This document shows positions 88 to 51,356 of a DNA stretch of 64,000 bases, one piece after another. Source of the DNA: a virus (lineage: Duplodnaviria; Caudoviricetes); the IMG/VR virus record IMGVR_UViG_3300028591_000122, positions 1 through 64,000 of that record; one strand, written 5' to 3'. Position 1 is the first letter of the stretch, and every line of letters starts with the position of its first letter. Position numbers and translations under genes: made by a program. Under the pieces are notes generated by a model. That model had not been told where the DNA came from, did not search any database, and saw nothing but the letters and a program-made list of their open reading frames with translations.

Positions 88-91
88 AGAC

Positions 92-715: not shown

Positions 716-716
716 T

Positions 717-782
717 TTAATTACTTCCTTTCAGTTCGGCTATATGATTGTCTATCTTAATTACTAACTCTATATCTGCCAT
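717..782 (-). CDS. 21-aa mini-ORF MADIELVIKIDNHIAELKGSN (start module fused to end module)
   Basis: Read directly; GTGAGG RBS upstream; absent from the ORF track. Confidence 0.6.
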   Translation of the reverse strand: MADIELVIKIDNHIAELKGSN

Positions 783-784
783 AT

Positions 785-937
785 TTATTCCTCACTTTCT
801 ACCTTTGACTTAATCTGCTTTTCAAAGTATTCATCAGTACAAAGTTGATAAGGCTTTTTATCAATATAAATTGTTACGGGTTTGTCGTCACATAATGTCA
901 ACATATCTGGTCTGCTTAATATAATAAATTCAGTCAT
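785..937 (-). CDS. 50-aa hypothetical protein ending VESEE
   Basis: Read directly; ATGA overlap with the upstream gene. Confidence 0.65.
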   Translation of the reverse strand: MTEFIILSRPDMLTLCDDKPVTIYIDKKPYQLCTDEYFEKQIKSKVESEE

Positions 938-1377: not shown

Positions 1378-4300
1378 TCCTTATCCTCTTCTTCCTGTGT
1401 CTCTACATACTTCTTTTCAATTTGTTCAAGATTATCAGCAAATTCATTAAAGGCTTGTGCAACCTCTCTTGATTCATCAATAATCTTTTTTAAATTCATT
1501 TCTGCTGTAATTTTATATGTTGCCATATCACTCCTCACTTTCTTTCTTATCCCACTTCGGGCATATAAAGTGTATCTGACCATCGCCGCCTTGTTCAGCC
1601 CATCTGCACATTCTTAATGGTGATATCTGATGTTTGCAGTTTTTACAACCTTTATAGCCAATTTTCTTAATAAGTTTTTGTAGTTCCTTATCCTCACTTT
1701 CTTCCAACAAAAATACTCGCCGTGATTGTTGGTGCTTCACATTCAGTATCAATCTCATAAGTTATGTTCTCTTTAATAGCCTCAAATAAATCTTTTGTTA
1801 ATGATTGTTTGAATAATGCTATAAATCCTGCATCATATGGTCGGTATGGTGGCAAAAATCTTCTTGACCGATACTCTTGAAATTGCATTGTCGTATGTGT
1901 TACAAACTTTGGCTTATTATATAAGTCATATAATTCCTGCATAGTAGGACTGTCCGTAATAATTCTACGCATTAAATCATTATCTGATTGAAGCTTTCCT
2001 ATCTGCTTTTTAAGGTGTTTTTTCATCTGCCTTGCGTTCATTTCTATCTCCTTTCAGTTTTCCTCACTTTCTGCCTTGACTAAATCCTTACTATATCAAC
2101 ACAAATCTTGCCATTAACAATTGTTTTGGTGTAAATATAATTTCTTCCTGTATAAGGACAATGAATTACGACAAATCTATTTTCCATCTGCTTCTCCTTT
2201 CAGTTCAGATATTCTAACTAAAATAACATCAAGGGCTGAATCAACTGAATCACACTCTATATCAATCTTTTCCTTTATTTTTCAAGTTCTTCAACAATCA
2301 TTTGTTGTTTAACATCTGCCCAATTTTGGTGATTGCCATCAGTAATACAAGGCAAACAAGGATATTCATTAAATCTTCTATCTCTATAAAAGCAATTAGA
2401 ACATCTTTTTTCATTGTGTATCTCCTTTCAATTTAGATACAACACTTCTTATTCCGCTCATAGCAATCTCGATATCTTTTGCATTGACTCTGTATTGTTT
2501 TGTATATACGTCAAACAACCACTTTTCTTCGAAATCAATTTTTTTAATAATTTCATTGTACTCGTTATTTGTCATTTCGTTTCTCCTTTTGTAATCTTTT
2601 TCTTTTGGTGACTGTCATATAGTATTTATGTTGGTATTCTTTGTAATGGTCTTTCCGAATATCTTCTTTAGTGCCCTCAAGTTCTTCAATTTTTCTTTCA
2701 TAACTCTTGGCTACTCTTTTCCAATACTCTGTTTCAGTGGACTTAAGTATGTTGCGTTCTCTCTGTGCTTCTGCATCGTGTTTTCTTTGACACATTCCGC
2801 AATAAGGATTAGTTCTACTATCGTATCTGTTTCTAAAGAACTCTGAACCACAATCAACACACTCAAAATAATAAGTTGTTAAATACCATATTTTATTAGG
2901 TTCTACCCTTATTAGTTTTGGAGCTGGTTTGTTTGTCATTCTTTATTCTCCTTTCAATTCTGCTATATGCTCATATATTTTTTCAAATACATCTTCAACA
3001 CAAATCAAATTGTCTAAAATACTCATATCATCAATTTCTTTTAGAAGTTCTTCAAGTGTATTAATTGCAACACTATTTGAATTTTCCAGAGATTTTACAG
3101 CCATATCCATTGCTTCAGAAAGAATTGTATTATTCGACATAAAAGGATTGTGTAAGTTTAAGGTTTCTATTGCTTCATTATTTGTCATTTTTATTCTCCT
3201 CCCCTAAAATTCTTTTAAGTGAATAAATGCTATAAACACCAATTAGCACCCACGGAGAAACAAGCCCGAACCATATAATCCAATATTCAATATCGCTCAT
3301 TATTTATTCTCCTCTAAAGGTTCATACCAATCCTCAATACCTTTTACACATTCATAGCATTCGCCCGATAATTCGTCTGTGTTATTTTTGCAATTATCAC
3401 ATCTGCTCTCCTTGTTCTCTTCTCTTAATCTATATCCGTTTTTATATGCTAATCTCACAAGTTCTTTTGCTTCTTGTATTTTCACGTCTGTCCATTTAGA
3501 ATCAAATGTCGGATTCAGCGTTACAAATAGTGCTTCGTCTAATTCTTCATTTGTAACTTCGTGTTCCTCGACTACTGTACGTGTTTTATAAATTATCATT
3601 CTTGTTTTCTCCTTTTGGTTATACTAATGCATTGCGCATAAACTCACATAATCTCCATCGCAATCTTTAACAATTGTCTTATATGGACAACTTTCTGAAG
3701 ATGTGCAATATGTATCATAATCTCCATCACAATCCTGTCTATAACTTAAATAATGACATTCATTTCTTACATCTAAATCATTCTCGCCCATTGTTCTTCC
3801 CTTTCAGCTCACAATCTTCTTTAAATACTTCTTTCATAGTCATATATTCTGTTTTACCATTAGCGGCATTTTTTGCTTCTTCTTTAATTTGCTTAATGGC
3901 ATCAATTATTTCTTCTTGATTTGTTTTCATTTGTTATCTCCTTCTTCTATATATTTACTTCCACCTTTTAAATATTGCTTACCTTCTTCTGTTTGACACC
4001 ATTCCAAATATTCTTTTTTCATATCTTCTGTAAACAATTCTAAATGTCCGAGCATTATAAGTCCTATTATATCTTTATGATTTTCCCATAACCAATGTTG
4101 TAAACTTTGTGTCAGTGTAACCATTTATTCTCGCCTTAAAACCAATCTTCAAGTTTTTCTTTTATTATTGCTATGCCAAGCCATAAAACCGGAATACCTA
4201 TTATTACTCCGACAATAATCCATCCTATGATTTCTTCATAATACTTAAGTTCAAAATATTTTTCAGCCATTTCCATTGTTATCTCCTTTCAGTTCGGCAA

Positions 4301-6812
4301 TATGTTTGTCTATTATGCTTACCGATAAATCTCTTGTTAAGAGAAATACATTTTCGGCACTATTCCCATTAGCTGACCATAAAGAATAGTCTTGTATCTC
4401 ATCTTTTATCTTTTCAAACTCTCCTTCAAGTGGAGCGCCGTTTGCTATAGTAGTTTCCATTCGCATATTAAAAGTTAAATCTGTCGGTTCCCCATCTAAC
4501 GAAAGTAAATCTTTTCGGAATTTACATTCTCTATAATCTTCTTCAGATATATCAATTATTAGTTTCATTTTTCAACACCTTCTCTTTCATCGTAGACCTG
4601 CACATCCGCTCTTATGATAAGAGTGTTATCAAGACCATCATATTCTGTAAATGATACAAGATTATTTTCATACAGGTATCTACCTATTTCATCACATACG
4701 TGTCTTTTTATGCATTCCTTGTATTCAGCAGTACCCTTTTCATCACAATAACCAAATCTTTCTTTCTGTATTGCTTGCGAGTTACTTATATGTTTCACTT
4801 TACTCAGGACTTCGTGTCTTCCAAACATTCTGCCATCTACATAGCCTTTTTCATATTGATGCCTATCATAATTCAATGCTCGGATAAGTTCGTCCTTATC
4901 AATATCAACACCTATCTTTCTTGTAATTTCTGTCACTATCGCTGCTTCTTCCTGTTTATGCATTTCTTTGATTTGGTCATCAACCATTTGGCTGATTATA
5001 CTTATTGGACTATTGTAACTCATTTATTTAACCTCTCTTTCATCTTTTCTGAAATACCAATGTCTTAAAGACTCATAACAATCTTTACATAAATCTATTT
5101 CTTTTTGCCCTCTATCGGTGTCTCGTGTCATAATAATTTTTCTATTATTTTTGAAGATATAAAAAGACGGACTAAACCAATCAGGAATTTCTTTACCACA
5201 TCTATCACAAGTAATTTTAACAGTTTCTTTTCTCATTCTTCATTCTCCTTTATCTTAAAACTTTGGTCTGTCAATGCTTTATATAACAGTTCTGCTTGTT
5301 CATCTAATTCCATTTTTAAGACATTTGTATGTGTTCCGTCTTTCTTTTGAGTCTGTCTTGCTACGCATATTCCAACTTCATTTGTCTCTTCCTTTTTATT
5401 GAAACTTACTATCAAAAAATCAGTCATTTTTATTCTCCCTATATTTCTCAAAATCTTCACGCATATTTTCCAACATTGTTGTTGCTATCTGTTTATCTTC
5501 TTCGTGTCTGTCTAAAGATAAATAATCACGCAATGCTTGATTAAGCACTAAGCATTCTGTGGGTGTTAACTCCAATTTTACACATTTAACTATATCTTCA
5601 TCTTTTAAAATAAGTTCTGCTTTCATTGTGTTCTTCTCCTTATTCATTAATGTTTTCGTCAATTAAATCCATTATTATTCCGCAGGCTTCATTAAATTCT
5701 GTCCAATTATAATCGGCGTGATTCTCATCATAATAATGGAAAACTCTTCTAACTATTCTTGTAAGGTTTTCTTTTTTGTCGCATTTTAACTTTTCAATAT
5801 CAGACCATAATAGGCATATCACTTTGTTTTCAAGATATATTGCCAAAACATTGTCATCTTTAATCAAATCTATATCAATGTTTTCTTTATGGGTATTTTC
5901 ATCGGCATTAAGAATTGTACATACTGTTTTCATCATTATCCCCTTTCAAATCTTCTAACAACTTGGATTGTAATGCTTGTAAATCGTTGATGACTTCTGT
6001 TATCTGTTCAATAGCAACCTTTTTATCTGGGTGTGCTATGAGTCGTTTATTCTTTTCGTCTCCTCTAAATGAATAACTACGAGATTTGTATGTGACTATC
6101 CATTCGTCCGGTCTTGATGCGTAATGTTCAAGATGAAATTTACATCGTCCAACTTCTACAACTTTATTAGTAAGTTTCTTAATCTCTGCTTCAATCTCTC
6201 TCTTCTGTTGTCTTAATGCTTCCAATCGTGTCATATTATTCTCCTTATACAATAAATCTTGCACCACAATTCTTACATTCTCCCCACGCTGATTGCCACT
6301 TCTTTGTAACTACGTTTTTGCGCATATGGGTTTCCATAGTGTAATTATTACAAGAAAAGCAATAATCGTTAGGAACTATCTTTTCTCCTTGCCTATCTTT
6401 AAGCCATTTAATTTGTGCTTTATCTGCTATGGCTACTTGATGGCAATTAACACACTCGCAACTTTGTCCATCTTTTAATAAATAAACAGGAACCGCTCCG
6501 TATTCTTGAGAACAGTCACTACAGCAAGGAGATTTATAGCATCTATCAGAATGTAAATCGTAATCTTCTCTCCAAACTATTTTCATTTTACTCTCCTTTC
6601 GAATAATACTTTGGTATCTTTTCATATACATCGACACCTTTATCATATCCTAATGTTCTTAATGTTCTACACATCAAGTCATCAGCTTGTTTATGAAAGT
6701 TCTCAAAGTCTCTTTCCTTTTCAACTCCGTTTGATATGTAACTATTATTCTCTATAAGTTCTTGCATATTTTTTTGAAAGTCAGCGGCACTAATAAATAT
6801 CATACCAATCAC
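1374..6812 (-). other. Array of about 20 small, tightly coupled hypothetical ORFs (e.g. 1374-1526, 1694-2041, 2565-2939, 2943-3188, 3300-3599, 4263-4568, 4565-5023, 5024-5236), several with CxxC motifs
   Basis: Abutting or overlapping minus-strand ORFs, each with AGGAG/GAGG RBS. Confidence 0.75.
2080..2414 (-). pseudogene. Modular gene broken by two single-base losses in A-runs (pseudogene or assembly error)
   Basis: Restored frame reads MKKRCSNC...EELEK/IKEKID...RISELKGE; breaks near 2406-2411 and 2278-2282. Confidence 0.55.
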
Positions 6813-7096
6813 TCTCCTCTCATTTTCTTTAACTCACTGTACGGCAACGACTCTTGTGGGAGTAAATTCTTTTTTAATTCCCATCTATGTCGTTGAATAG
6901 CACCTCTACTTCTTCGTAATTGTTTGGATAATTCCAAATCACTTACTTCGTGTTTTAAAATTGCTTCATCTTCGGCTTTAGTATAAGGTCTTTTATCATA
7001 GAGATACGCACCGCCACGTTGTCGGTAGCGGTCCGATTGTCTCTTTTTAGTTGCTTTATATTTGTCTAAATCTTTATACATTTCTTTTCTGTTCAT
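6809..7096 (-). CDS. Small basic HTH/Myb-like DNA-binding protein
   Basis: YT.AEDEAIL...ELSKQLRRSRGAIQRHR pattern; start uncertain. Confidence 0.45.
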   Translation of the reverse strand: MNRKEMYKDLDKYKATKKRQSDRYRQRGGAYLYDKRPYTKAEDEAILKHEVSDLELSKQLRRSRGAIQRHRWELKKNLLPQESLPYSELKKMRGE

Positions 7097-9017
7097 CTTT
7101 TTTATCTCCATATATTTCCATCGCATAATCCTTTAATTTCTCTGGAATTTCAAGATTAGCATTAGCTTTTTCGCTATCCCACTTGAAGTTTCTCGTGTAT
7201 TCTTCGTAATTCGTATAGAATCTACGAGATGGAACATCATAATAAAAAGGTATCTCAACACCGTTACGTCCTTGTACTCTGTCTTTAATGATAGACAACA
7301 GAACATCGTGTCTGTTATAAGGACATTTAGGGTCTTCCTTTTCTTTTTTAGATATTCTTCTTAATGCGAAACTCAAATGAGCAAGGTTAATAATGTTTGA
7401 CGAACCACTAATATCATACATATCAACTTCTCTTACACCAGCAGGAAGTTTCTTTGGGTGACAAACAATAATAATTGCTACATTAAACTTCTTTGCAAAC
7501 TTAATTAGCCTGTTAAAGAACACCGTTTGAGCATCATACTTATCATTACTTGCATTATTAAGAGCAATACACATCAAGTTATCAATGATAAGAGTCCGTA
7601 TACCGAACTTTCTAACACATTCTTCCATACTAACAAAGAGTGAATCTTCATCATTCGGAGCATCGTCTTTATAAATGTACAACTGCCCGTCATAAAATCG
7701 TCTTATTTTCTCTTTTATCTCAGGCGGTGTCTTATAATATGGCGCTCCAGTGTATGTACTGATGTATTCGTTAATGTTTCCTCTACCAGCAAGTCCTAAT
7801 GTTAACCAGTTAGATAAAATATTTGAGTTCATCTCATTTGAGAATATCCAAACACGTTCTCCAGAATCAATTACATTACCTATAATCTGATTTAAGAATG
7901 AACTTTTACCAGATGATGGAAGACCACTGACGATTGTAATCATTGAGTAAAATATTTTACCTATGACTTTATCTACTTCTTTAAATCCAGTGTAAATTCC
8001 GGGCATCTTATCTATATCAACATCCTCAATAGTAGAGAAGTCCACAACAGATTGAACAGGAGAGTCTTTTGCGTTAACAATTGCGTCTAAAACCGCTTCC
8101 TTGCCCTTATAGTAGAGAAGTTCGTTAATGTCCTTTACTGTAACGGTACGGTCATTAAACTCAACCGTGGTAGGTATGTCAACAACACCAGTTCTCCAAG
8201 TTCCTAATCGGTATATTACTTCTTTTTGAGCCTTAATACCCGCTTCATCATTATCAAAAGCAAGTATAATTGAGTTAAACTGTTCAAGAAACTCCCAATT
8301 CTGTTCTATCCAACCATAATTATTTGCTCCTAAAGGAACAGATACGGAGTTTTTATACCCTGACTCAATAGCGGCAAGGCAATCAGGCTCCCCTTCTAAA
8401 ATTAGTAGAGGTTGATTAGGGTTAACTCGGTTCATATTGAATAATAATTGAGTTGTATCTGCACCCTTTTGACACCATGATTTGTTCTCGCCTTTTTGTG
8501 GTTTACGACTCAGTTTGTATTTAACCATAGTTAATACATCATTAGTATCATAATAGTTAAATACTGCGTTTCCACCTTTATCTTCACGAACATCACAATA
8601 ATCAAGAGTCTCTCTTGATATGCACCGTTTCTTGAAGTATTCTGTTATGTTTTCTTTTTCTGTTATAGGTTCTTCTTTAGGATACCTATATTGAGATTTA
8701 GTTCTAACACCCTTTTCTCCAAATGTATAAGAAATCCCAGCCTTTTCAAAGATTTGTTCGCAAGCTTCGTTGAATGTAAGACCGCTTTCCATATATGCGT
8801 CCACTATATCAACGTTGTGAGAGCAACCAAAGCAGTGAAAATTTAATGCTTTAGGATTCCAAACAAAACTAGGAGTGTCTTCACTATGTACGGGACATAA
8901 AGCCTTATGATTTCTCGAATCATATTGTTGTAGATTTAATAAATCTGCAATCAAATCTGGTGTTTCATTGGCTATAGCCCGTTTTGCTTGTTCTAATTTG
9001 TCTTTGTCAATAAGCAT
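7074..9017 (-). CDS. DNA primase-helicase (T7 gp4/Twinkle-like)
   Basis: CPVH...CFGC zinc finger, TOPRIM EGEPD and FDND, Walker A GLPSSGKS, IIDNL, HP.K and SGS SF4 helicase motifs. Confidence 0.92.
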   Translation of the reverse strand: MLIDKDKLEQAKRAIANETPDLIADLLNLQQYDSRNHKALCPVHSEDTPSFVWNPKALNFHCFGCSHNVDIVDAYMESGLTFNEACEQIFEKAGISYTFGEKGVRTKSQYRYPKEEPITEKENITEYFKKRCISRETLDYCDVREDKGGNAVFNYYDTNDVLTMVKYKLSRKPQKGENKSWCQKGADTTQLLFNMNRVNPNQPLLILEGEPDCLAAIESGYKNSVSVPLGANNYGWIEQNWEFLEQFNSIILAFDNDEAGIKAQKEVIYRLGTWRTGVVDIPTTVEFNDRTVTVKDINELLYYKGKEAVLDAIVNAKDSPVQSVVDFSTIEDVDIDKMPGIYTGFKEVDKVIGKIFYSMITIVSGLPSSGKSSFLNQIIGNVIDSGERVWIFSNEMNSNILSNWLTLGLAGRGNINEYISTYTGAPYYKTPPEIKEKIRRFYDGQLYIYKDDAPNDEDSLFVSMEECVRKFGIRTLIIDNLMCIALNNASNDKYDAQTVFFNRLIKFAKKFNVAIIIVCHPKKLPAGVREVDMYDISGSSNIINLAHLSFALRRISKKEKEDPKCPYNRHDVLLSIIKDRVQGRNGVEIPFYYDVPSRRFYTNYEEYTRNFKWDSEKANANLEIPEKLKDYAMEIYGDKKDEQKRNV

Positions 9018-9039
9018 TTGTTTCGCCCCTTTAATCTAT

Positions 9040-9573
9040 TTATCGAATCTGCATATTGAGATTTCTAACTAGCTCTGCTCCCTTTACTTTTTCCCCATTT
9101 TTGAGAGCCTTTGTAATATCTTCTGTGCTTATTTTTGTAACTACTTCCTTGGTCTTGTATTTCTTTGGAATTAAATCCGCATCAAGAATCTCAAGTTTAG
9201 TAGACTTTCTATAAGAGATAATTGCTTTAGGGTCATCAATCTTCCACTTATTACAACCATCAAAGTCGTTATCAATATCATTAAGACGATGTTTAATAAC
9301 ATTATCCATAGCCTTTTTATATCTCTCTACGGCTTTTTCTTTAGACTGTCTGCGTTTCTTAAGTCTATCTTCTTCTGCTTTTATCTGCTCAATATCACTT
9401 TGAACATTCTTAATGTAACAAGCAGTGTTGATGAGTTTATTTTCCATATCCATTTGGATATCTTCATACATTCTTTGGAAGTCTTCTTCGGAAACAGCAA
9501 CTTCTCCGGTCTCTGTATCAACACCATATGTTTCAAGGTTTAATAATCTTTGGTCAATTTCGTATAAATTCAT
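9040..9573 (-). CDS. Siphovirus Gp157 family protein
   Basis: MNLYEI...IKAEEDRL..RR...ISYRKS...IKALKNGEKVKGAEL..N.QIR. Confidence 0.85.
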   Translation of the reverse strand: MNLYEIDQRLLNLETYGVDTETGEVAVSEEDFQRMYEDIQMDMENKLINTACYIKNVQSDIEQIKAEEDRLKKRRQSKEKAVERYKKAMDNVIKHRLNDIDNDFDGCNKWKIDDPKAIISYRKSTKLEILDADLIPKKYKTKEVVTKISTEDITKALKNGEKVKGAELVRNLNMQIR

Positions 9574-9980
9574 TTTTTCTCCTCCATATCTTTTTCATAT
9601 ACTATGTAATCACCTTTATCCCAGTCGTAATTATCTGAATCAACATTGCCTTTGTGTTCTTTAAATTCAGATAAATCAATCTTGTTATTTTTGAACTTTC
9701 CTTTTTCAAGTTCGCAAAGGAACGCAACATTACAAGCCAAGTGCCAAAGGTGTGGCAGACCGCTTTCATCATCTAAGCCGTAAGGGTCTTCAATATATAA
9801 AAGCGTATGTCTTAATAATGCATCTCTGTATCTTTCTACTTCTACAGACTTCCACGATTCTTTCTCTTTGTACTTCTTAAGACCAAACTCTCTTATCCTT
9901 GCAATATTTCTTATAATTTCCATTGGAACCAGACTTAATCTTGGTTTGCCGTTATCAGCTTTAATTTCTTGATTATTCAT
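9570..9980 (-). CDS. dATP/dGTP diphosphohydrolase-domain protein (DUF5664-like)
   Basis: KADNGKPRLSLVP, FG.KKY, Y.DALLRH, D.ESGLPHL.H.ACN; start re-set to MNNQ. Confidence 0.85.
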   Translation of the reverse strand: MNNQEIKADNGKPRLSLVPMEIIRNIARIREFGLKKYKEKESWKSVEVERYRDALLRHTLLYIEDPYGLDDESGLPHLWHLACNVAFLCELEKGKFKNNKIDLSEFKEHKGNVDSDNYDWDKGDYIVYEKDMEEKK

Positions 9981-11329
9981 CTTCTTCTCCTTCATATCCT
10001 GTACATTCATATTTATGGTCACATATTTCACAATCACAGTCACTTAAATAGTTTCCTGTTTGCCAACAATAATCTTCTTTACTGATTCTTGCGGGGATAA
10101 CGTGTGTTGCATTACAATCATCACAACATCTATCATTTTCTCCTTTGGTTACTGGATAAGGATTATTGCCATATCCATCAAATTTTTTACCGCATATAGA
10201 ACATATAAAAGTCATATCAGTCTCCTCTCTACAGTGCTGTAAATCTTACACAACTCGCATCTTTATATCTGTTTGGATAGCCTTTTCTATATTCATATTT
10301 GCGTGAGCCATCAGGATTAAACAGATGCTCTTTAATCGTTTGAGACGTTATCTCTTCTTCGGTTTTTTGATAAACAGTATAACGATTTTTAAATACCGTC
10401 TCTGTGCTTGCTGCGTATACGTCCATCTTAGGCACTTTAAGCAGGTTTGCTACCTGCTCTGCATTGCCCTCAAAGATTGGAACTCCATGTTCTCTTACTA
10501 CAAATACACTCATTAAATACTTTCCCACTCCTTTTCTTCCCAATTTTTTATTCGTTGTTTTGTTTTTTGTTTTTCAAGCTCAGTAAGTCTCTTGCTTTGA
10601 GCCGCCGCCATTATTCTCGCTCTTTCGGAAATGATACTCTTTATTTCTTCATCTTCGATGAGATTAAGTAAATCATCTCTTAATATTCTTATTCCATCAC
10701 CAAGTCCATTATAGTATTTTCTTACTGTAATCGGTGCTTTATAAGGATTTGGTTTCTTACGAGCCTTTTTAGCGGGCGGTTTCGTCATCATTGGACACAT
10801 ACCGGCAGGGGTATCAACTCTTAACTTTTTCATTCAGACCACCAAATATTGAATTAAATTCTTTTTTTAACCAGAAGTTAGCCATTTCGTCGCCTTTTAC
10901 AAGAATGATTGTTTTGTCGTTGTCTATACTACGGTAGCACTCCAGAACAGTTCTTTCACTAAAAGGTTTAAACTTTTCAATTCTTTTATTGCTAGACTTT
11001 ATATTGTCTTGTAATTGCTTGAGTTTGTCATTGTAATCTTTAACGACATCTTCAAACGGCACATCTACTTCCATTGTTTTACCCGTTTTAAAATCGTGTT
11101 CTTTTCTTGTAACTTTGGCTTCTTTATCAGGCGGTGAAGCCAACAAATTATTGTATGCGATTGTTGCCGTTCTAACACTGTTAACAAATGTTTTATACCA
11201 TTTGTCATTAAATATGTGTTCGTTATCCAGAAAAACCTGTGGCTTTCCTATAAAAAAGAAAGCAGAACGAGAACCAATACATACATCTTCTTCGCTATTC
11301 AATTGTAAAAGTTGTGTTCTTAATTTCAT
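9973..11329 (-). other. Four hypothetical ORFs (9973-10215 Cys-rich, 10229-10513, 10513-10833, 10814-11329)
   Basis: Coupled ORFs with RBS; 9973 has CSICG...GNNPYP...CCDDCN. Confidence 0.7.
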
Positions 11330-11410
11330 ATTATCTCCTTTTGGGGTAAACAAAAGAAGCGGACCATTTACTTATATCCACTTCTTTATATTTACCAAAC
11401 ACTTGCTAAA

Positions 11411-11833
11411 CTACCAAGGTAATTCTTCTGTAAGACTCGGGTCAATGTTCATAAAGTCATCATCTGAACTAACTTCTTTTGTTTTCTGTCCAGAAGATTC
11501 TGTTTCTCCACCAGAAGATTTTTTGCTCTCTGCAAACTCTTGGTCTTCTGCAACAACATCTGTTGTATAAACCTTTTGTCCGTCCTTGTTGGTGTAAGAA
11601 CCTGTCTGAATACGACCAGTAATTACAACTTTCATTCCTTTTGCAAAATACTTCGATGCAAATTCTGCACTCTTACCAAAGGCTACGATGTTAATAAAGT
11701 CTGTATCATATTCACCGTCTTTGTTTTTAAATCTTCTGTCTACGGCAAGTGAATATCTTGCAACCATATTATTACCGTCACCTCTTGAATCAACATCTTT
11801 GCATACGCGTCCCATCAAAATTACACGATTCAT
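11411..11833 (-). CDS. ssb: Single-stranded DNA-binding protein
   Basis: MNRVILMGR...DFINIVAFGK.AE...GRIQT.SY...acidic tail ending LPW. Confidence 0.95.
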   Translation of the reverse strand: MNRVILMGRVCKDVDSRGDGNNMVARYSLAVDRRFKNKDGEYDTDFINIVAFGKSAEFASKYFAKGMKVVITGRIQTGSYTNKDGQKVYTTDVVAEDQEFAESKKSSGGETESSGQKTKEVSSDDDFMNIDPSLTEELPW

Positions 11834-11885
11834 ACTTTTTTGTTCTCCTTTTCTGATTTAATTATCGTTCATTTCCCATAAGGGA

Positions 11886-12008
11886 TTGCATAGGTAGGGA
11901 TTCGAACCCTACATAACCAAGACTATACTTTTTACACCACTAGCGCGCCATAAGGCAACTTGGTCTATTCAGTGAGTTTAGCGTCTACTACCTTTCCGCC
12001 ACTATGCA
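11886..12008 (-). ncRNA. tRNA-like RNA, about 123 nt, anticodon arm replaced by a larger domain
   Basis: Acceptor TGCATAG/CTATGCA, Leu-type D arm, T arm GTAGGG-TTCGAAT-CCCTAC. Confidence 0.7.
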
Positions 12009-12193
12009 ATTTGCAAGGGTAACCCTAAAGCCGTCAGTGTTAAGCCTAAATCGAGATAGGTCAATAATCACTGCACACCTCCCCGCGTTTTTTATCAATC
12101 TTCCCTTGCCATTTACAAGACACTTGCTCTTTGCCTGTAACTTTGGGTTTAGGTTTTTATGAGAGCCTAAGCAAGTCGGACATCTCAAGCAGT

Positions 12194-12283
12194 TTCCATG
12201 GGTGAGGATTTGAACCTCACAAGGTATTTCTCAACCAACCGAATTGGTACCAAATCGTGCATTACCATTTCTGCCACCATGGA
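12194..12283 (-). ncRNA. Non-canonical tRNA-like RNA (Tyr-like GTA, long variable arm)
   Basis: Acceptor TCCATGG/CCATGGA, T arm GTGAGG-TTCAAAT-CCTCAC, irregular anticodon arm. Confidence 0.65.
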
Positions 12284-12339
12284 ACATATATTTTATGGAT
12301 AGCATTTAATTTCCCACAAGCCCGCATAGATTGTGGGAA

Positions 12340-12410
12340 CAGGAACAAAAGGAATCGAACCTATATTTACAGTTTTGGAGACTGCTGTTCTACCGTTGAA
12401 CTATGTCCCT
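12340..12410 (-). tRNA. trnW: tRNA-Trp(CCA)
   Basis: Cloverleaf AGGGACA...GCAGT-CTCCAAA-ACTGT...TTCGATT...TGTTCCTG; no encoded CCA. Confidence 0.92.
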
Positions 12411-12428
12411 ATATTGCATAAGCAATGA

Positions 12429-12500
12429 CTGGACTAGTTGGATTCGAACCAACAAATGCAGGAGTCAAAGTCCTGTGCCTTACCTTTTGGCTATAGCCCA
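12429..12500 (-). tRNA. trnQ: tRNA-Gln(TTG)
   Basis: TGGGCTA...CAGGA-CTTTGAC-TCCTG...GTTGG-TTCGAAT-CCAAC-TAGTCCAG. Confidence 0.95.
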
Positions 12501-12611
12501 ACACATCGGCTACCGCATCTAACACCGATATGTGATTTTGAAAAGTTTGACCTTTCCTTTGTATTTAATAACCATAGAAACGGAGTACACTTTTATGCGG
12601 TAATTAAGTTA

Positions 12612-12684
12612 CGGAAACAACAGGACTCGAACCTGTGACTTATTGATTAACAGTCAATCGTTCTACCAACTGAACTATGTTTCC
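12612..12684 (-). tRNA. trnN: tRNA-Asn(GTT)
   Basis: GGAAACA...ATTGA-CTGTTAA-TCAAT...TTCGAGT...TGTTTCCG. Confidence 0.93.
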
Positions 12685-12812
12685 ATTTTATATTCTTAAG
12701 CCACTGCTTATTGGCACTTAAGAATATATGGGGGTGCGTGTAAAACAACAACAATCATTTTAAGGGGCTATTTAATGTCTTTAGGGAAAATCACGCAGTG
12801 TTTAAGCCATAT

Positions 12813-12884
12813 TGCGTAGGTGGGTTTTGAAGCCCACATTCGATGGTTTCTCACTCAATCCGGTGGAAACGCATTCACTACGCA
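12813..12884 (-). ncRNA. tRNA-like element lacking a D arm
   Basis: TGCGTAG/CTACGCA stem, GTGGG-CTTCAAAA-CCCAC T-like arm, central GTTTC/GAAAC stem. Confidence 0.45.
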
Positions 12885-12909
12885 TTTATATAAAGCACAA
12901 AGCCTTATA

Positions 12910-13197
12910 TCATAAATAAGATTTCCAAAAGTATTGCATCCATTCTTCTCTTGAACCTATCTTTTCTTCGAATGTTCTTTGAGCAAGTTGTTTTAATTCA
13001 AGTTCGTTTTTGTTATCATCGTGAATTAATGTATGGCAGTTATAACAAATCCAAATCTTAAGTCCGAATTTCTCTGATAAATCTCTTCGTCCACGCCCCT
13101 CTATAATGTGATGTTCACTCAATAATTCTTCTTGGGAACAACCACATAGATAACATTCTTTTTTATCTTGAATAATACTTTTGGTTACTTTCCCCAT
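12910..13197 (-). CDS. HNH-like Zn-binding protein
   Basis: CYLCG...EHHI...GL.IWIC..CH..IH. Confidence 0.65.
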   Translation of the reverse strand: MGKVTKSIIQDKKECYLCGCSQEELLSEHHIIEGRGRRDLSEKFGLKIWICYNCHTLIHDDNKNELELKQLAQRTFEEKIGSREEWMQYFWKSYL

Positions 13198-13709
13198 TCT
13201 CGCTTAAGCCTTTCTATTTCGCTATCAGGGATAATTGGTATATCTAAATCTCTACACTCCGAAATGATTCCGTCTATAAAGACACTCATTTCTTTTGTAG
13301 TAAAGGTTGAACTTCCGAAGTAGCATTGTAACTGATGACCTGTTTGTCCGTTTACAGTAACCTCTCCTAAATCAATACATACTCTAAACATTTCTTTAAT
13401 TCTTGGTATTACTGATTCCCTTACTATCAAGTGTGTAAATGCTCTGCTATATCTTTGTAAACAGTTGATATACACTTCCCATTTATCAAGATATGTTGCT
13501 TCTGCTATCTTCTGCATAAGCTCCCAAGCATATCTATTCGAATCAAGACTTCGTTTATCGTAATGTTGTTTTGCTTGTATATCTAATTGTTTATTGCTAC
13601 TCAACTTATCAAGGTCTTTTATATTTCCTTCGTCCATTTCAAAGGTTATGTTGTATTTGCCAGTTGATAAGTTACGAGCAACACTAACAAGATGACCTTT
13701 AAATTCCAT
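13185..13709 (-). CDS. NinB/Orf-like recombination accessory protein
   Basis: RSLDSNRYAW.L..KIA...GSS.F.TKEMS.FIDGI..EC..L.IP. Confidence 0.65.
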   Translation of the reverse strand: MEFKGHLVSVARNLSTGKYNITFEMDEGNIKDLDKLSSNKQLDIQAKQHYDKRSLDSNRYAWELMQKIAEATYLDKWEVYINCLQRYSRAFTHLIVRESVIPRIKEMFRVCIDLGEVTVNGQTGHQLQCYFGSSTFTTKEMSVFIDGIISECRDLDIPIIPDSEIERLKREWGK

Positions 13710-13888
13710 TTGTTTTCGCCTTTACTATTTTCTTTATTGTCTTTTAAAACAAGAGACTGCAATGAATGGTATAACTATTGCTTGTCCGAATCATTACTAA
13801 TTGTGTGCTTGTTATATCTCTCGTACTATAAGCACCATAGCCAAAATACCAACCAGAAGGTGTAACATAATATGACATTTGTTTTCTC

Positions 13889-14796
13889 CTATTCCATTTT
13901 ATTCTCTCTTTTTAATTCTGTTATTGTATTATGAATAACAGCCTTGCAAAAGGCTATTCCGTCACGATAACGATTTGTGTTTGCACTTCTTTCTATTTCT
14001 TCTTCAAATCTTTTCTCAATTTGTTTCAGTTTTTTGATAGCAAAATCTTCTTTTTCATTTTTTGATGACGTATATTCTTTGCCGTTACTAATTGAAGTTG
14101 CATAAACATTTCCATCTGTTCCATATACTCTGTTCATTTCTTTTCTCCTTTTAGTTCTGATATTCTTTTGTCGATTAAATCCATAACATCATCGTTGTCT
14201 ATGACACCTATATATTCTCCGTCATTATCATCAAAGGCTAATTTATGAATTTTTTTCTTTATTTGTTCAAGTTCTTCAATAGTGCCTTCTCTTTTACCAC
14301 GGTTAAATCCGTCCATATAATCGTGACAGTCGAAACAACTCATACTCATTGTTTTTCTCCTTTTAAAGAGTGTTTTCTTCTTTCCATTTTGCACCGCAAT
14401 TCGGACAATTATATTCAGAATATTCAATATAAACTTTTTCGTATTCTGATTCCATTTTAGCTATTACCTTTGGAGGAAATTTTGTAAGTTTTCCAAAACT
14501 ATTACAGGTAGGGCAAATTCCTTCTCTTTTCTTGTCTGTTAAATCATTCATTTTTCTTTCGCCCACCTTTTGCACTTGTCTGTAAAGCAACTAACATATC
14601 CGATATGATGGTTATCTATCTCGCAATAACACTCAATGTTTGTGATTTCGCCTTTTCGTATATTGTGTCTGCAATTACAACAGACCTTTTCGCATTCTTT
14701 TTCAAGTTCTTCATTGCATTTATCGCATATATTGAAGCCTTGTTTATTGTTTTCTTCTGTTAGTTTGACACCGCAACGGTCACAGAATCTATTCAT
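13889..14796 (-). other. Small-ORF cluster (13889-14137, 14134-14349, 14363-14551, 14548-14796), modular and CxxC types
   Basis: Coupled ORFs; 14134-14349 ends IDKRISELKGEKK. Confidence 0.7.
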
Positions 14797-14821
14797 TGTT
14801 TTTCCTTTCATTTATAACAAC

Positions 14822-14902
14822 TCGGTGTGACTCGGCAAGGGTATTAGTTAACCCCCAACTTTTGCATTGTTCTTTTAGCCTTTTCACTCCACGCCACACC
14901 GA
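14822..14902 (-). ncRNA. Structured RNA motif, copy A
   Basis: 10-bp closing stem TCGGTGTGGC/GTCACACCGA; core shared with 49647-49740. Confidence 0.6.
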
Positions 14903-15038
14903 TATTGTTTTCACTAACCGCCGTATATCCTACCTACACCGATACACCTTTACCTTGCAACTCTTTCGAGCCATACGGCTTTCCCCTTTTGGTTAGTTTA
15001 ATGTTCTAAATCTTTCATTTGTTGTCTCCTTTTATATT

Positions 15039-15782
15039 TTACACTTTGTTGTATGCAGTTACAACCTTGCTCCAATTCTTTGTAACATTTGTATACATTT
15101 CTTCTGTAAACTCTTTAAATGACTTTATCTTATAAGAGTTAAGTAGGAAGTCTGCCGATACTCCATCTTTCTTCATAAGAGTTTTAAGTTCTCCTATCTG
15201 CTCTAATGTTGCCATAGGCTTATCTTCTTTGGGTTTACTTTCTGTTGTTTTTGTTTTTGTGGGGCTAGTAGTTCCAAATGTATAAACAACTTCTTTTGAT
15301 TTAAGATTTATGATAACTAATTTGTTAATTTCTTTTTTGTCATCATAACCTATTTCTTTTACTTCAAATTTATCATAACATTTTCCGTCATTAAGAATAT
15401 TGCATTTGTCTCCCGGCACCCATATAAACGGTGCAGTGTACAACTCTCTGCCAATGCCGAAGTTAAATGCTGCCCTCTTAAAGCTATCAGATGCCTGACC
15501 CTTTTCTTTTTCTGTATAAGATTCAGTACCTACATCTTGTTTTGAAATCCACTGTTTCTTTTCATCGTCCCATATTGAAATAGTACAATATAATCTATCT
15601 CCAATTAACTGATGATTTCTCTGCCAGTTCATAGCACCGACCGTTTCGTCTAAAAGATTTTGGTCAACTCTTGCATCTTTATATAACAATAAAGTTAAAC
15701 CGCCTTTGTTTTCCTTTTCGGGTTTCTTTACTGTTGCTATTCTACATTCAATTTCATCCGCTCTTAATAATCTAAATTCCAT
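15039..15782 (-). CDS. sak: Rad52/Sak-family single-strand annealing protein
   Basis: YKDAR...LDETVG..NWQ...K.DVG.ES..E.EKG.ASDSFKRAA..FGIGRELY. Confidence 0.88.
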   Translation of the reverse strand: MEFRLLRADEIECRIATVKKPEKENKGGLTLLLYKDARVDQNLLDETVGAMNWQRNHQLIGDRLYCTISIWDDEKKQWISKQDVGTESYTEKEKGQASDSFKRAAFNFGIGRELYTAPFIWVPGDKCNILNDGKCYDKFEVKEIGYDDKKEINKLVIINLKSKEVVYTFGTTSPTKTKTTESKPKEDKPMATLEQIGELKTLMKKDGVSADFLLNSYKIKSFKEFTEEMYTNVTKNWSKVVTAYNKV

Positions 15783-15904
15783 ATCATGTACCCCTTTCTA
15801 AATCGAGTAAAAAATAAAAGGCAACGCATATTTGGTTAATAGGAGAACAACTAATTTCTTTTGTATAGTCGCTTCGTTGCCTTTATCTTTTCACTTCTGT
15901 TATT

Positions 15905-15933
15905 ATATTATCACCTAATCATTACCATGTCAA
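15905..15933 (-). promoter_or_regulatory. SigA-type promoter
   Basis: TTGACA-17 bp-TAATAT with TG extension. Confidence 0.75.
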
Positions 15934-15941
15934 CAACTTTT

Positions 15942-16214
15942 TTAAAAAATAAACACCATCTGAATTCCTTTGTTTCTGTCACTTAAAGAATATGAATTAC
16001 AGCCATTAGAATCTAAAGTGATTGTATAATTCTCTACATCTCTTATTCTGATATATTGAGAACTATTAAATACAATTACTAAAGTTCCGTCATATTCTAT
16101 CGAGTCAGGAATAAAATGACATTGACTTGTTTTATCTCTATCTGTTATAGAGAATTTAACTTTAATTCTATTTTCTTTAGCCTTATATAATTCATTTAAG
16201 AATAAATTTAACAT
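15942..16214 (-). CDS. Hypothetical protein
   Basis: 90 aa ORF with AAGGAG RBS. Confidence 0.7.
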   Translation of the reverse strand: MLNLFLNELYKAKENRIKVKFSITDRDKTSQCHFIPDSIEYDGTLVIVFNSSQYIRIRDVENYTITLDSNGCNSYSLSDRNKGIQMVFIF

Positions 16215-16384
16215 ATACTTACTCCTTATATATTATTATACTATATTTATTTTATTTCTCTCTTTTAAGAGAGAGAAATAAAATAATAAATAAATATATA
16301 CTATATAATATAATATATATAATTATATTATTTATTTAATTATTAAACTATAGTATAATAATTAATATTCCATTTATATTATAA
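16215..16384. other. Extremely AT-rich intergenic tract with a long inverted repeat
   Basis: TTATTTTATTTCTCTC...GAGAGAAATAAAATAA around 16247-16286. Confidence 0.6.
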
Positions 16385-17086
16385 CTACCTTTTTCTTTTA
16401 AGAGAAGTTGATGCATTTTTATATCTGTTTTCTAAAGCTCCATCTAAATAAAGTATGTTGTTATGACCTACGCTTGGTTTAAATCCCATTTCTATGCCAG
16501 ATAAAATCTGTTTATTGGCTTTGTCCATTATGAATTCAGAGACTTGTTTGCAGGACTCTCCATATGTCTGTCTATCTATAGTTGCCGTTTCCTCTGTAGG
16601 ACCGCAGATATTATATTCCATATCCATATAATAATATCCAGTATAGTCTTTTATAAATGAATTCAGTTCATTTCTGTATGGGCTATAATATATTTTTCTA
16701 ATCACATATAATTTATCATTGTTGATATTTTTATATCTATTTCCAATTATATCGTCATTGCCAAAACGATGTGATTGCCCGGTGTTTCCTCTGTCGGTCC
16801 AGTATAAATATACATTTTTATTTTGCTTTATCGCTTCCTCTCTTCGCCTTTTAGATTCTATGTCGTCAATATTAATTTCAGTATAATTATATTTAGCATT
16901 ATTAATGACTTTTTCTCCGTATTCATTGTAAGTGTCAACAATTCTATGGCAATTTTGTTTTAATCTATAATCTCCATTACCATCAAGATATACACCATAT
17001 TTATTAGAATCTGTTTTACCAAATTGAGTTTTAATAGTTCTGTTGATGGTATGCAAACCAAATAATGTCAAGATTTCCAATATCAT
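16385..17086 (-). CDS. Hypothetical protein with hydrophobic N-terminus
   Basis: 233 aa ORF with AGGAGG RBS. Confidence 0.75.
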   Translation of the reverse strand: MILEILTLFGLHTINRTIKTQFGKTDSNKYGVYLDGNGDYRLKQNCHRIVDTYNEYGEKVINNAKYNYTEINIDDIESKRRREEAIKQNKNVYLYWTDRGNTGQSHRFGNDDIIGNRYKNINNDKLYVIRKIYYSPYRNELNSFIKDYTGYYYMDMEYNICGPTEETATIDRQTYGESCKQVSEFIMDKANKQILSGIEMGFKPSVGHNNILYLDGALENRYKNASTSLKRKR

Positions 17087-17101
17087 ATTTAATACCTCCT
17101 T

Positions 17102-18118
17102 TTAGATTTTAAGAACATTAGACATTATATTTATTGCCCTTTCCTTTTCGTCTTTGTCAGTAGTTATATATCTTTGAGTTGTAGCTATATTTGAATGTCC
17201 AACAGTTCTCCTTACAAACTCTACATCGTGTGTCTTATTATAGAGTATTGAACAAAAGCCTGCTCTTAATTTATGTGGTGATATTTTATATCCAAGTCCT
17301 TCTTTACAATATTTCTCTACAAGTTTAGCAATGGCTTGAGAACTTAATCTAGTACCTCTTTCCGAAATGAATAACGCATCACGTTCGTCCTTTAAAAACT
17401 GTTCTCTATCTACGAGCCACAATTCAAGATATTGTAAAACCATTTCGCTCAATGGATAAAAATGATGTTTATTGCCTTTATCTATAATTTTGAGCGAGTA
17501 TGTTTCGTAGTTTATATCTTGTATATTTATCTCGGACAACGCAGTTTTTCTCATTCCAGTTGTCATAAATAACAGAATAATAAGTATATCTCTGTTTTTT
17601 AATTTCTCTTGAAATGCTCTGGCTTTAAGACTCCCCGCACCATTCTTCGCAGCCTTAAGGATATTGTTGAAATCCTTTTGTGTTAATAATATTCGTTCTT
17701 CCTGTATTCTATCGAAGTCCTTATTTTTTGGTCTGTCAATATCATTCATAAAATTATGTTGTATATATTTTCTTTTACACAAAAAATTCAGAAAATTATT
17801 TAATGCATACCAGTTTGTTTGCTGATATGAATCAGATGTCATTCCTATTGTTCCGTCTGAATTTGTTTTTGTTTGACAGGCAATTAAATAACTTTCACAG
17901 GATTGCAAAGTAATATCTTCTGGCTTTATTGAAGAAACATCTGGGCTGATATAAGAAAGAAATCTTTTAACTTTTCTTATATAATCTTGGCAGGAAGCCG
18001 CGGTTTTCCGTGACGCTTTCATATTGATATACCATTCATTTACAAAAGTTGGCATATCTTTTAACATCATTGATGTTGACTGTTGCATTTTCAGTTCATT
18101 TTCTAATCTCCCTTGCAT
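17102..18118 (-). CDS. Tyrosine recombinase (XerC/D-like)
   Basis: TGMR, DKGNK, HKLR, GHS, TTQRY: complete R-K-H-R-H-Y set. Confidence 0.93.
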   Translation of the reverse strand: MQGRLENELKMQQSTSMMLKDMPTFVNEWYINMKASRKTAASCQDYIRKVKRFLSYISPDVSSIKPEDITLQSCESYLIACQTKTNSDGTIGMTSDSYQQTNWYALNNFLNFLCKRKYIQHNFMNDIDRPKNKDFDRIQEERILLTQKDFNNILKAAKNGAGSLKARAFQEKLKNRDILIILLFMTTGMRKTALSEINIQDINYETYSLKIIDKGNKHHFYPLSEMVLQYLELWLVDREQFLKDERDALFISERGTRLSSQAIAKLVEKYCKEGLGYKISPHKLRAGFCSILYNKTHDVEFVRRTVGHSNIATTQRYITTDKDEKERAINIMSNVLKI

Positions 18119-18130
18119 ATAAACTCCTTT

Positions 18131-20274
18131 CTACAATTCTTTTATATCATCAATTGCTTCTGATATTTTGTCGCAGGCTTCTTGCATTGAGTATATGGTG
18201 TCTTCTATAATACACGCCTTATTACCATACTGTAACGATTCTGGTATGTTGTCATATGTGTCCTGTTCTTCATCTATTAATGACTGTAAGAATAAAACAC
18301 ATTCCTCAAGTTGTGATATTAATTTTTTTAATTCTTTTCTTCGTTTGTTGTTCATATTATACCTCACATATTTAATTCTTTAATAGAATCTTCGGATAAA
18401 ATTCCTCTTATTAACAGTTCCGATTCTAAATCTCTTAAATGTTTCAATAACCTATCGGTTCCTCTTTGAGTAACAAAGTTAGTGTCATAATGAGAATATG
18501 TTTTTACATATTCAACAATTAACTGCTCATTTGTTATCTTTTTAATTTCTGCTTTAGTCATATTTTATTCCTCACTTTCTGCCTTGTATGGCATCCTGCA
18601 TTTTCAATTCGTCAGCACAATTCTTACAGTAAACTCCCTCTTTGCCCTCTATCTTGTAGAGAAAGCACATCCATTGAACATTCCACTTGCCACGCTTTTT
18701 ACATAAAGCGCATTGTCCTTGTCCATTACCCTCTGCTTGTGTTATTTTCATTCTTTTACCTCCATCTTCGCTCCGCAATGGCAATACGGGTATTCTTTGT
18801 AAACCTCATCTCTCACTTCATATGGGACAATGATTTCTCTTTTACAGCAAGAACATTTATATGTTACGTCAAAATAATTAGAATATTCATCATCATATAT
18901 CCAATGCCCCATCTTCGGCTGTGGTGTGACAGACGGCATTTCTTTAATGTCTTGACACACTAACTCATTTTCCGAACTATGTCCTAATTCCGCCCAACTT
19001 CCCTCAATGTATTCAAGCACAGCCTGTCTGCTTATAGCATCTTCACAAGACTCTTGTTCTAATGCTTTGATTGCCATTTCTAAAGGCTCTCTATCTTCTT
19101 CCGTTACATAACACACAGAGTTTTCATACTCTGTGGCTTCTGTAAGTATTCCCTTTAATTTTTCTATTGCTTCTTTATTTGTCATTTTTCTACCTCACTT
19201 CCCTGCTTGTGCCTTAACAGTATTTTCTTTATCCATATTGGCAACATACATATCAGTATCGGTGCATCATCGTATCCCTTTTTAGCCATGTAGCATCCGC
19301 AATCGTTGCACTCGCCCTCGTAACTTCTATCTTCCCACGATAACGGACAATGTTCACAATCACATTCATACCAACAATGCAATTCCGTCCAATGTGTAGG
19401 CTTACCATTTTCAAAAGAACCATAATGTAATGTTTCTATGTGAAAATTACCGATTGTTTTATCTATTTCAATGTGCTTTTTAAACTTCCAAACTTTCATT
19501 CCTTATCCTCAACTTTACATTCACATTCTCCACAATCTCTTGCTTCACAAAAGGCTTCTTCATAAGATTGACAATCAGTTCTACTTGTGTCATATTCTAT
19601 TTCCTTGTTCTCCTTTATAATTATTGGTGTTAAATCTAATGCCTGATATAAATCGCCATTAGTTCTCTCATATTGCTCACACAAAATATTTGAATCAATC
19701 AAATCGCCGTGTTCTTTCGGAAGCACCGTACCATTCTGTACGGCTTCTATGAGCTTTATTCCTAAAACCAAAGTATCAAATTCTGTTCTGTCAATTACCT
19801 CTTTGTAGGTTTCATCATTAAGTTTAATTACCAACTCTGTCATATTTATCCCTCACTTATCTTCAATGCAACCTCTCCAAATACTGTCTTGTATTGAATC
19901 TTTTAAATTCCATTCATCTTCATAGTCTGGATATTCTTCCATTTCTCTATCGTAATCGTCTTTATTCCAATCTGGTATATTTAACATTTTTATTCTCCTT
20001 TATCTGCTTCTATGACTGTTGGTGCATTAAGAACTGCCATCTCTGTTAATCTTCGTATATTCATATCATCTCTATCATTGCAAGGGAATTTTCTAAAAAC
20101 CTTTTCCTTGTATGCATCAGCATCTATCAATCTTCCGTGTTCTTTAGGTAGCACAGTTCCGTTTGCAACACTCTTAATGATATGAAAATCAAAGCCTTCG
20201 TTTTCTTCTGTTAGTTCTGTGGTTTTGCATTGTTCATATAATTCATCTTCAAGCCTAATTAGAATTTCTTTCAT
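18131..20274 (-). other. Small-ORF cluster (18131, 18364, 18572, 18748, 19182, 19496, 19990), several modular
   Basis: Coupled ORFs; NGTVLPKEHG.LID shared by 19496 and 19990. Confidence 0.75.
18917..19068. repeat. 152-bp dispersed repeat, copy 2
   Basis: About 91% identical to 1127-1278. Confidence 0.95.
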
Positions 20275-51342: not shown

Positions 51343-51356
51343 GTAAGGAGGAAAGG

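Follow-up and report, generated by a model that had tools for sequence, protein, structure and literature searches.

RNA signals that act in cis are known from phages HK022 (putL and putR) and lambda (nutL and nutR), where they occur two per genome, in oppositely oriented operons and ahead of terminators that have to be read through. The put signal consists of two adjacent stem-loops and nut of a boxA plus a 15-nt boxB hairpin; the hosts of these phages are enterobacteria. Phage T7 carries about ten structured, intercistronic RNase III sites per genome, and phage phi29 encodes a small RNA (pRNA) that has a three-way junction and whose 5' end is paired with its 3' end. Furthermore, HDV-like theta ribozymes adjoin tRNA genes in Caudoviricetes of mammalian gut microbiomes, where a role in RNA end formation was proposed for them, and adopt a nested double-pseudoknot fold (PMC10879173). 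GOLLD RNAs are often found near tRNAs and in prophages; ROOL, for which similar properties were described, was first found in cow rumen (PMC5737381).

The stretch of DNA considered in the present work (hereafter, the window) comprises the first 64,000 nucleotides of a Caudoviricetes record of 116,456 bp. The initial annotation had reported in it a structured RNA motif in two copies of one architecture; both were found at their places and with that architecture, and a covariance model (R2, cmsearch) run over the whole record places the element exactly twice, at the same positions, referred to here as copy A and copy B. Copy A, of the variant that we call A-type, occupies 14820–14904 of the minus strand (79.3 bits, E 9e-18), or 14822–14902 from stem to stem. 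From 5' to 3' it consists of one strand of a 10-bp stem (UCGGUGUGGC), GU, GGAGUGAAAA, GGC, UAAA, two hairpins, U, GCC, GA, and GUCACACCGA. The 5' strand of helix P1 (14893–14902) has its partner at 14822–14831 and is followed by the 5' strand of an internal loop, represented by the A-type module GUGGAGUGAAAA (14881–14892), and by the 5' strand of P2 (GGC, 14878–14880), which pairs with 14834–14836. Then come the variable hairpin P3 (CAAU-GCAAAA-GUUG, 14856–14869), placed by minimum free energy (MFE) folding, the hairpin P4 (GGGG...CCCU, 14838–14855), and the P2 3' strand GCC with the loop GA and the P1 3' strand (14822–14836), all on the minus strand; in this last segment GCCGAGU is kept in 22 of 24 aligned members of the family described below.

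Copy B, of the B-type, lies on the plus strand at 49645–49742 (60.5 bits, E 6e-13) and spans 49646–49741 from stem to stem. The order of its parts is that of copy A with a stem of 11 bp, except that GU is followed, ahead of GGC, by UAA, a small hairpin (GGUU-GGU-AACC), and GA. The P1 5' strand (UAAACGGUGGC, 49646–49656) pairs with 49731–49741 and embeds the terL stop codon (49646–49648); the B-type module, that is, GUUAA, the small hairpin, and GA, forms the 5' strand of the internal loop (49657–49674), and the P2 5' strand GGC (49675–49677) pairs with 49726–49728. P3, again from the MFE fold, is at 49688–49701 and P4 (ACGG...CCGU, covarying with the GGGG/CCCU and GCGG/CCGC of other members) at 49704–49725, while the P2 3' strand GCC, the loop GA, and the P1 3' strand fill 49726–49741. 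The two copies thus have in common a closing stem of 10–11 bp ending GGC/GUC, GU, AGGC-N-AAA, two hairpins, and UGCCGAGUCAC. In the window there are exactly two occurrences of the 11-mer TGCCGAGTCAC, for a chance expectation (within one mismatch) of 0.24. Compared with shuffled sequences, folding gives z = -3.65 for copy A and a weaker z = -1.4 for copy B. The AATAC reported in the second hairpin is present in both window copies and in close relatives, and is not shared by the family as a whole.

Each copy lies on the strand of its flanking genes and the two gene blocks face opposite ways, in agreement with the early-type and the late-type transcribed region to which the copies had been assigned. 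Copy B is placed between terL (47909–49648, plus strand; Pfam Terminase_6N and PHROG terminase large subunit families) and the portal gene (49834–51342, plus strand; phrog_2739 portal protein, E 6e-64). Directly upstream of terL there is a phrog_3314 gene (46852–47916, plus strand), assigned by a PHROG match and with no Pfam match. Upstream of copy A lies a gene for an Erf/Rad52-like annealing protein (15039–15782, minus strand; phrog_1097, Pfam Rad52_Rad22); downstream there is an ORF of 87 amino acids (14548–14811, minus strand) without a family match, listed as starting 8 nt past the model match but with its likely ATG, the one that has a ribosome-binding site, about 25 nt past it. With the terL stop codon inside copy B and 8–25 nt between copy A and the next gene, both copies are parts of mRNAs. 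Promoter and terminator scans beside the two copies gave nothing above chance, and no terminator adjoins either of them. Terminator-like sites are in excess in the part of the window that contains copy B (31 in 44001–64000, against 11.6 ± 3.3 in shuffled sequences) and not in the part that contains copy A (7 against 6.7 in 1–20000), including the block downstream of this copy. Logan contigs from three metatranscriptome runs and one DNA run were aligned to the terL–portal stretch; two RNA-library contigs (49529–49899 and 49600–49767) cross copy B without a joint, and so give no sign of splicing, although contigs do not show ends, strand, or level, and DNA carry-over is possible.

Two further structures were observed in the same region. 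A second long hairpin without a U-tract is predicted between copy B and the portal ribosome-binding site (49750–49815, plus strand), where relatives have other structured elements or terminators. Moreover, a tRNA-like gene (46742–46815, plus strand; Rfam tRNA, 43.7 bits), which ARAGORN reports as an undetermined tRNA with a four-base anticodon call (atta), is found directly upstream of the phrog_3314–terL pair, in the place where other phages have the motif.

The initial annotation could not recognise the motif, and no catalogued family accounts for it. A cmscan of the whole window against Rfam 15 (4227 models) at the gathering threshold retrieved four tRNAs only, and at the same thresholds nothing was retrieved from eight related loci. 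With E values up to 10 at both window copies, and up to 1 at four other variants, no model overlapped the element on the same strand; the single overlapping row was an opposite-strand chance match to the yeast snoRNA model snR73 (E 2.6). The motif is called as a tRNA neither by ARAGORN nor by the Rfam tRNA model, and no description of it was found in the literature.

Concerning the systems introduced above, the element resembles put and nut in its place on the transcribed strand, upstream of terminators, and in its few copies per genome; unlike them, it is a junction clamped by P1, without the sequence or fold of put or of boxA/boxB. Its fold is also unrelated to that of EAR. With the T7 RNase III sites it shares an intercistronic location in both early and late regions, as well as an upper domain separated from a lower stem by an asymmetric internal loop; however, it is found only once or twice per genome, and its upper domain is a junction rather than a simple helix. 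Paired ends, a junction, and the vicinity of terminase and portal genes recall phi29 pRNA, but there is no Rfam pRNA match, and copies of the motif also occur in early regions and in tRNA arrays. We would give a very slim chance to the idea, drawn from that vicinity, that the motif is an RNA cofactor of the packaging motor; no complementarity between its two hairpin loops that could build a ring was seen by eye. Like theta ribozymes, it is a small structured RNA of gut Caudoviricetes adjoining tRNA genes, whereas P1 closes a fold without crossing helices, and positions ahead of tRNAs or between protein genes occur as well. An HDV-like (theta) ribozyme was rejected, since the motif has no supported double pseudoknot and no HDV-type Rfam match. 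It is an orphan structured RNA, as are GOLLD and ROOL, with the rumen origin of ROOL and the tRNA neighbourhood of GOLLD, but these are ornate and about 580–800 nt long, whereas the motif measures 82–107 nt across the family and has no Rfam match to either.

A total of 26 distinct members, all from rumen or gut samples, were gathered by pattern scans of viral and metagenome contigs and of species genomes, together with loci fetched via terL homology. The first pattern (GGCGT...TGCCGAGTCAC) returned about 116 stretches, nearly all of which were chance matches in GC-rich coding DNA; only two loci (L027 and L104) were real. True members can be told from chance matches by the complementarity flanking the conserved core, which extends over 7–12 or more bases in the former and 0–3 in the latter. 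Two covariance models were built, R1 on 7 sequences and R2 on 20; R2 gives 34–95 bits to 24 distinct members, and 68 and 57 bits to the later-found L204 and L209, respectively. It also finds one copy in each of four other phage records, two of which are near-complete (126 and 142 kb), and R1 finds two copies in one 24-kb contig; the copy number is one or two per genome. About 450 genomes were sampled from the order, family, and class of a motif-carrying sheep-rumen Clostridia MAG, and only two of them were positive, both copies lying within tRNA arrays. The sequencing runs that contain the terL–portal stretch of the window are sheep and bovine gut or rumen samples. Among GenBank phages, blastn with A-type and B-type members retrieved only chance matches of 18–31 nt, and the 800 nt around copy A retrieved nothing. 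The element is specific to uncultured rumen or gut phages of about 60–140 kb.

The compensatory changes previously noticed between the two copies are real and extend over 24–26 homologs, with both-sided changes at 13 pairs. In the 24-sequence alignment, which was fitted to the covariance model, 94.4% of cells are standard pairs, against 72.8% in shuffled alignments, and none of 500 shuffles reaches any of the measures; the covariation of P1 is visible in the raw flanks as well. When partner columns are slid out of register, pairing falls to 35–49%. P1 is a clamp of 7–13 bp with double changes in eight of ten pairs, and P4 has them in all four of its pairs; P2 (GGC/GCC) is nearly invariant, with the wobble variants GGU/GCC and GGC/GCU. 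P3 is weakly supported (66–76% of cells paired family-wide) and was treated as a variable region. RNAalifold independently gives P1, P2, P4, and a 2-bp trace of P3. Past P1 there is an asymmetric internal loop, with GU...A and an optional insert on the 5' strand and GA or AA on the 3' strand; the 3-bp P2 then closes a junction holding an A-rich strand, the variable hairpin, and the conserved hairpin P4. About 20 nucleotides are conserved. All the supported helices are nested: pairings between the P4 flank and the P4 loop are possible in several A-type members (CGUU/AACG, ACUGU/ACAGU, and CGCGUU/AACGUG), and a pseudoknot between the 5' flank and the loop of P4 was not significant in a permutation test over the 26 members (p = 0.07).

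The last pair of P1 before the internal loop is C-G in 24 of 24 members, and the pair adjoining it within the stem is G.U in 23 of 24. This constancy makes the fold strand-specific and, therefore, an RNA fold; the same is indicated by the invariant G.U together with the orientation of the element, which in every inspected locus is on the strand of the neighbouring ORFs or tRNAs. We conclude that these sequences represent a genuine, uncatalogued structured RNA family supported by covariation.

The 5' strand of the internal loop exists in four variants, namely the A-type GUGGAGUGAAAA (15 members, two of which are single-base variants), the B-type with GUUAA, the hairpin, and GA (10 members), the C-type GUGA (L164), and the D-type GUUUA (L195). 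The A-type module is invariant across 13 A-type members in alignment A8 despite their differing stems; 12 of the 13 were retrieved by patterns fixing the module, while a scan that did not constrain it yielded the two single-base variants (L204 and L209). The B-type module is common to 10 distinct members, seven of which, including the variants GGUUGGUUACC and GGUUGGUAGCC, were likewise retrieved through patterns fixing it, the other three having been found independently of it. On the 3' side the loop reads GA, except for AA in two members, and the strand GCC-GA-GUC is continuous in all of them; the optional hairpin GGUU-GGU-AACC sits on the 5' (bulged) strand.

This loop had been likened to a kink-turn or k-junction. 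In the standard kink-turn, tandem G.A and A.G pairs come after a bulge of 3 nt (PMC5061560), and a k-junction has an additional helix on the non-bulged strand of the k-turn (PMC10573300; also PMC4005666). The 3' strand of the motif does read helix-GA-helix, and the 5' strand of the B-type sets GA beside the GGC helix, so that with GA opposite GA a tandem G.A/A.G flanked by a C-G-ended helix would be possible, as in a kink-turn; yet the "bulge" of this type is 16 nt long and includes the hairpin. The C-type has GU plus GA opposite AA, the A-type AA opposite GA, and the D-type UA opposite GA. The tandem G.A/A.G signature is thus complete in the B-type only, and half present in the C-type (G.A, then A.A). 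Because the extra hairpin is on the bulged strand, opposite to what is seen in k-junctions, and the signature is incomplete outside the B-type, the k-junction identity was rejected; as far as the sequences tell, the resemblance to a k-turn is partial at best. No L7Ae gene (PF01248) was found in five motif-bearing phage records.

The genomic context was then compared across the family. In about ten loci the upstream stop codon precedes P1 by 0–25 nt, and in about six the next ribosome-binding site follows the motif by 15–30 nt. The motif directly follows terL in the window and in L120, L121, L123, and L161; in L157, L164, and L104/L125 it comes just before the phrog_3314–terL pair, and contig G008 has one copy on either side of this pair. 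The phrog_3314 gene is constantly just upstream of terL in these phages, and its product may be a small terminase or DNA-recognition subunit. Other members accompany tRNAs: the motif is about 4–8 nt from a downstream tRNA-Met in L158 and L104, about 4 nt before a tRNA-Gly within an array of eight tRNAs in L195, and about 5 nt after a tRNA-Gln and 67 nt before a tRNA-Asn in L194, and it follows five tRNAs in L163 and tRNA-like elements in L155, L204, and L164. The motif is enriched at the borders of terminase operons and inside tRNA arrays. Downstream of the motif and ahead of the next start codon, L162/L120, L146, L157, L155/L204, L209, and L161 have a terminator-like hairpin with a U-tract; that of L121/L123 is atypical. 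The distance from the motif to the terminator ranges from about 5 to 120 nt, and that from the terminator to the ribosome-binding site is 0–20 nt in L162/L120, L146, L157, L155/L204, and L121/L123. Motif and terminator form together in one minimum-energy fold, where no pairing competing with the terminator appears. The L155-type locus shows a 10-bp stem enclosing hairpins, a GAAA hairpin, TATAGGCA/TGCCTATA, and a terminator. Close terL relatives (76–100% identity) have the motif at the terL–portal junction in differing variants (A or B); in more distant ones it is absent and terL abuts the portal ribosome-binding site. Lastly, L139 and L141 share the same module from P1 to P1, with one substitution, within unrelated flanks.

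Such covariation and about 20 conserved nucleotides usually point to a specific function. Terminators, operon borders, one or two copies per genome in opposite blocks, and the independent folding of motif and terminator are together best fitted by a cis-acting read-through (antitermination) signal, a reading that we put forward tentatively and at somewhat less than even chances. The element would act in cis on its own transcript, at the edges of two operons, the late one for packaging and an early one, where the invariant loop of the folded RNA would be offered to an antiterminator protein or to RNA polymerase during elongation. As a result, the intrinsic terminator that separates the motif from the next gene in many relatives would be passed by the polymerase, following the logic of HK022 putL/putR or lambda nutL/nutR with an unrelated fold. 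The 0–20 nt between terminator and ribosome-binding site leave no room for a promoter, and the genes past the terminator include the essential portal gene, so the polymerase must read through; moreover, the presence of motif and terminator in the same minimum-energy fold fits a processive mechanism and not competing pairings. Against read-through, the window's own copies have no adjoining terminator, with no excess of terminators downstream of copy A; the L194 and L195 members lie in the middle of tRNA arrays, which is unexpected for a promoter-proximal antiterminator; the module swapped from P1 to P1 between L139 and L141 looks more gene-like; the fold is unlike put, nut, or EAR; and the terminators may do no more than end a small-RNA cassette. 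A second reading, possible although improbable on balance, is a gene for a small, stable, trans-acting non-coding RNA, freed by the processing of flanking tRNAs or ended by its own terminator; through its invariant loop this RNA would bind a protein of the host or the phage and serve, for instance, as a decoy or as the scaffold of a ribonucleoprotein. A terminator after the motif is the typical layout of small-RNA genes, the pairing of the 5' end with the 3' end is a trait of stable RNAs, and there are one or two copies per genome. The spacers between the motif and neighbouring tRNAs (L158, L104, L195, and L194) are like those between tRNAs, and in L155 the motif follows a tRNA-like element with a weak mascRNA-type match (26.6 bits). 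In addition, the same module is found in unrelated flanks before non-homologous downstream genes, related terL–portal junctions carry different variants and more distant relatives none, and GOLLD, near tRNAs and in prophages, and ROOL, from cow rumen, offer a precedent (PMC5737381). Such a gene is harder to reconcile with the lack of a convincing promoter directly upstream in most loci, with the overlap of copy B with the terL stop codon and the 8–25 nt that separate copy A from the next gene, and with the want of a partner, no gene for L7Ae or for a Ro/TROVE protein having been found in the phages. In sum, the terminators that lie ahead of the next ribosome-binding site speak for read-through control, and the tRNA-array members and the exchange of modules speak about equally well for a released small RNA.

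A signal for RNA processing or stability appears unlikely, whether a new self-cleaving ribozyme, a site for a host endonuclease comparable to the RNase III sites of T7, or a block to exonucleases that defines and protects the ends of adjoining mRNAs and tRNAs. The tight intercistronic positions, the vicinity of tRNAs (as for the theta ribozymes of gut phages; PMC10879173), the roughly 20 conserved nucleotides with an invariant G.U beside an internal loop, and the alternative peripheral inserts at one site, typical of small ribozymes, would all suit it. On the other hand, a punctuation signal of general use should recur at many junctions and not once or twice per genome, the Rfam searches at relaxed thresholds (E up to 10 for the window copies and up to 1 for the four variants) revealed no similarity to a ribozyme family, and the RNA-library contig that runs unbroken through copy B and its flanks argues weakly against cleavage, contigs showing no ends and DNA carry-over being possible. 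The narrower proposal of a new self-cleaving ribozyme class that cuts late transcripts and tRNA arrays in phages of rumen Clostridia, with the G.U/C-G step and the asymmetric loop as its active site, is more doubtful still. We consider it quite improbable that the motif is a riboswitch, in which a small-molecule aptamer would control a downstream terminator or ribosome-binding site. Its architecture is aptamer-like (a P1 clamp, an internal loop, a multi-helix junction, and conserved unpaired nucleotides), and both classical platforms follow it, either a terminator (L157, L146, and L162) or a ribosome-binding site (copy A, L160, L178, and L184). However, the downstream genes (portal, head protease, endolysin, tail protein, tRNAs, and unknowns) are non-homologous and have no common function, no pairing competes with the terminator, whose distance varies from about 5 to 120 nt, and some members lie within tRNA arrays; the combination of an aptamer before functionally related genes and a competing platform was not found. 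Only a very remote chance is left for an element acting at the DNA level, such as a miniature inverted-repeat transposon, a target for recombination or homing, or a packaging site of the pac/cos type. The motif does move as a module, short direct repeats flank it in L146, L174, and L193, terminase genes are close by, and in L158 a homing endonuclease gene ends 19 nt upstream; but the outer stem varies by compensatory change without a conserved terminal-repeat sequence, the G.U of 23 of 24 members would be a C-A mismatch on the other strand, and the motif is on the transcribed strand in every inspected locus, unlike a DNA element. Should the element control read-through, phages of Gram-positive anaerobes would have a new RNA-based means of timing their late genes; should it prove to be a ribozyme or a released small RNA, the small repertoire of phage non-coding RNAs would gain another class. 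In either case, the covariance model R2 allows the element to be annotated.

Some additional features were observed beside the motif. The homing endonuclease gene of L158 (1609–2490, minus strand; GIY-YIG/HNH-type PHROGs) is absent from the otherwise similar L104 locus. The tRNA-like element immediately upstream of the motif in L155 (1431–1497; also in L204 and L164) has a GGUUCGAUUCC T-loop; ARAGORN makes no call on it, and the Rfam match to mascRNA-menRNA is weak (26.6 bits, E 0.07). The tRNA array that contains the motif in L194 also holds a weak match to YrlA, a Y RNA-like family (2332–2441, minus strand; 29.7 bits, E 0.0045, against a gathering score of 69), and, near it, a tRNA with the anticodon CTA, of the amber suppressor type (2777–2869). 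The short direct repeats bracketing the motif (CTAAATAGGACT in L146, TGTAACGATTACGCA in L174, and GGTCTTTAGGAYGACYTAAAACT in L193) may be phage-specific promoters or insertion traces. In L161 and L209, a conserved terminator-like hairpin with compensatory changes (GGCGGUGCG...CAAAAC...CACCGCU, followed by a U-rich stretch) is located 5–45 nt past the motif. Finally, a small hairpin with a UAUA loop, followed by a terminator, lies beside the motif in two unrelated contexts (L155, 1680–1700, and L162, 1601–1617). This hairpin covaries, being GCC-UAUA-GGC in one locus and ACC-UAUA-GGU in the other; its recurrence with a terminator beside the motif suggests that the three may form a larger cassette.
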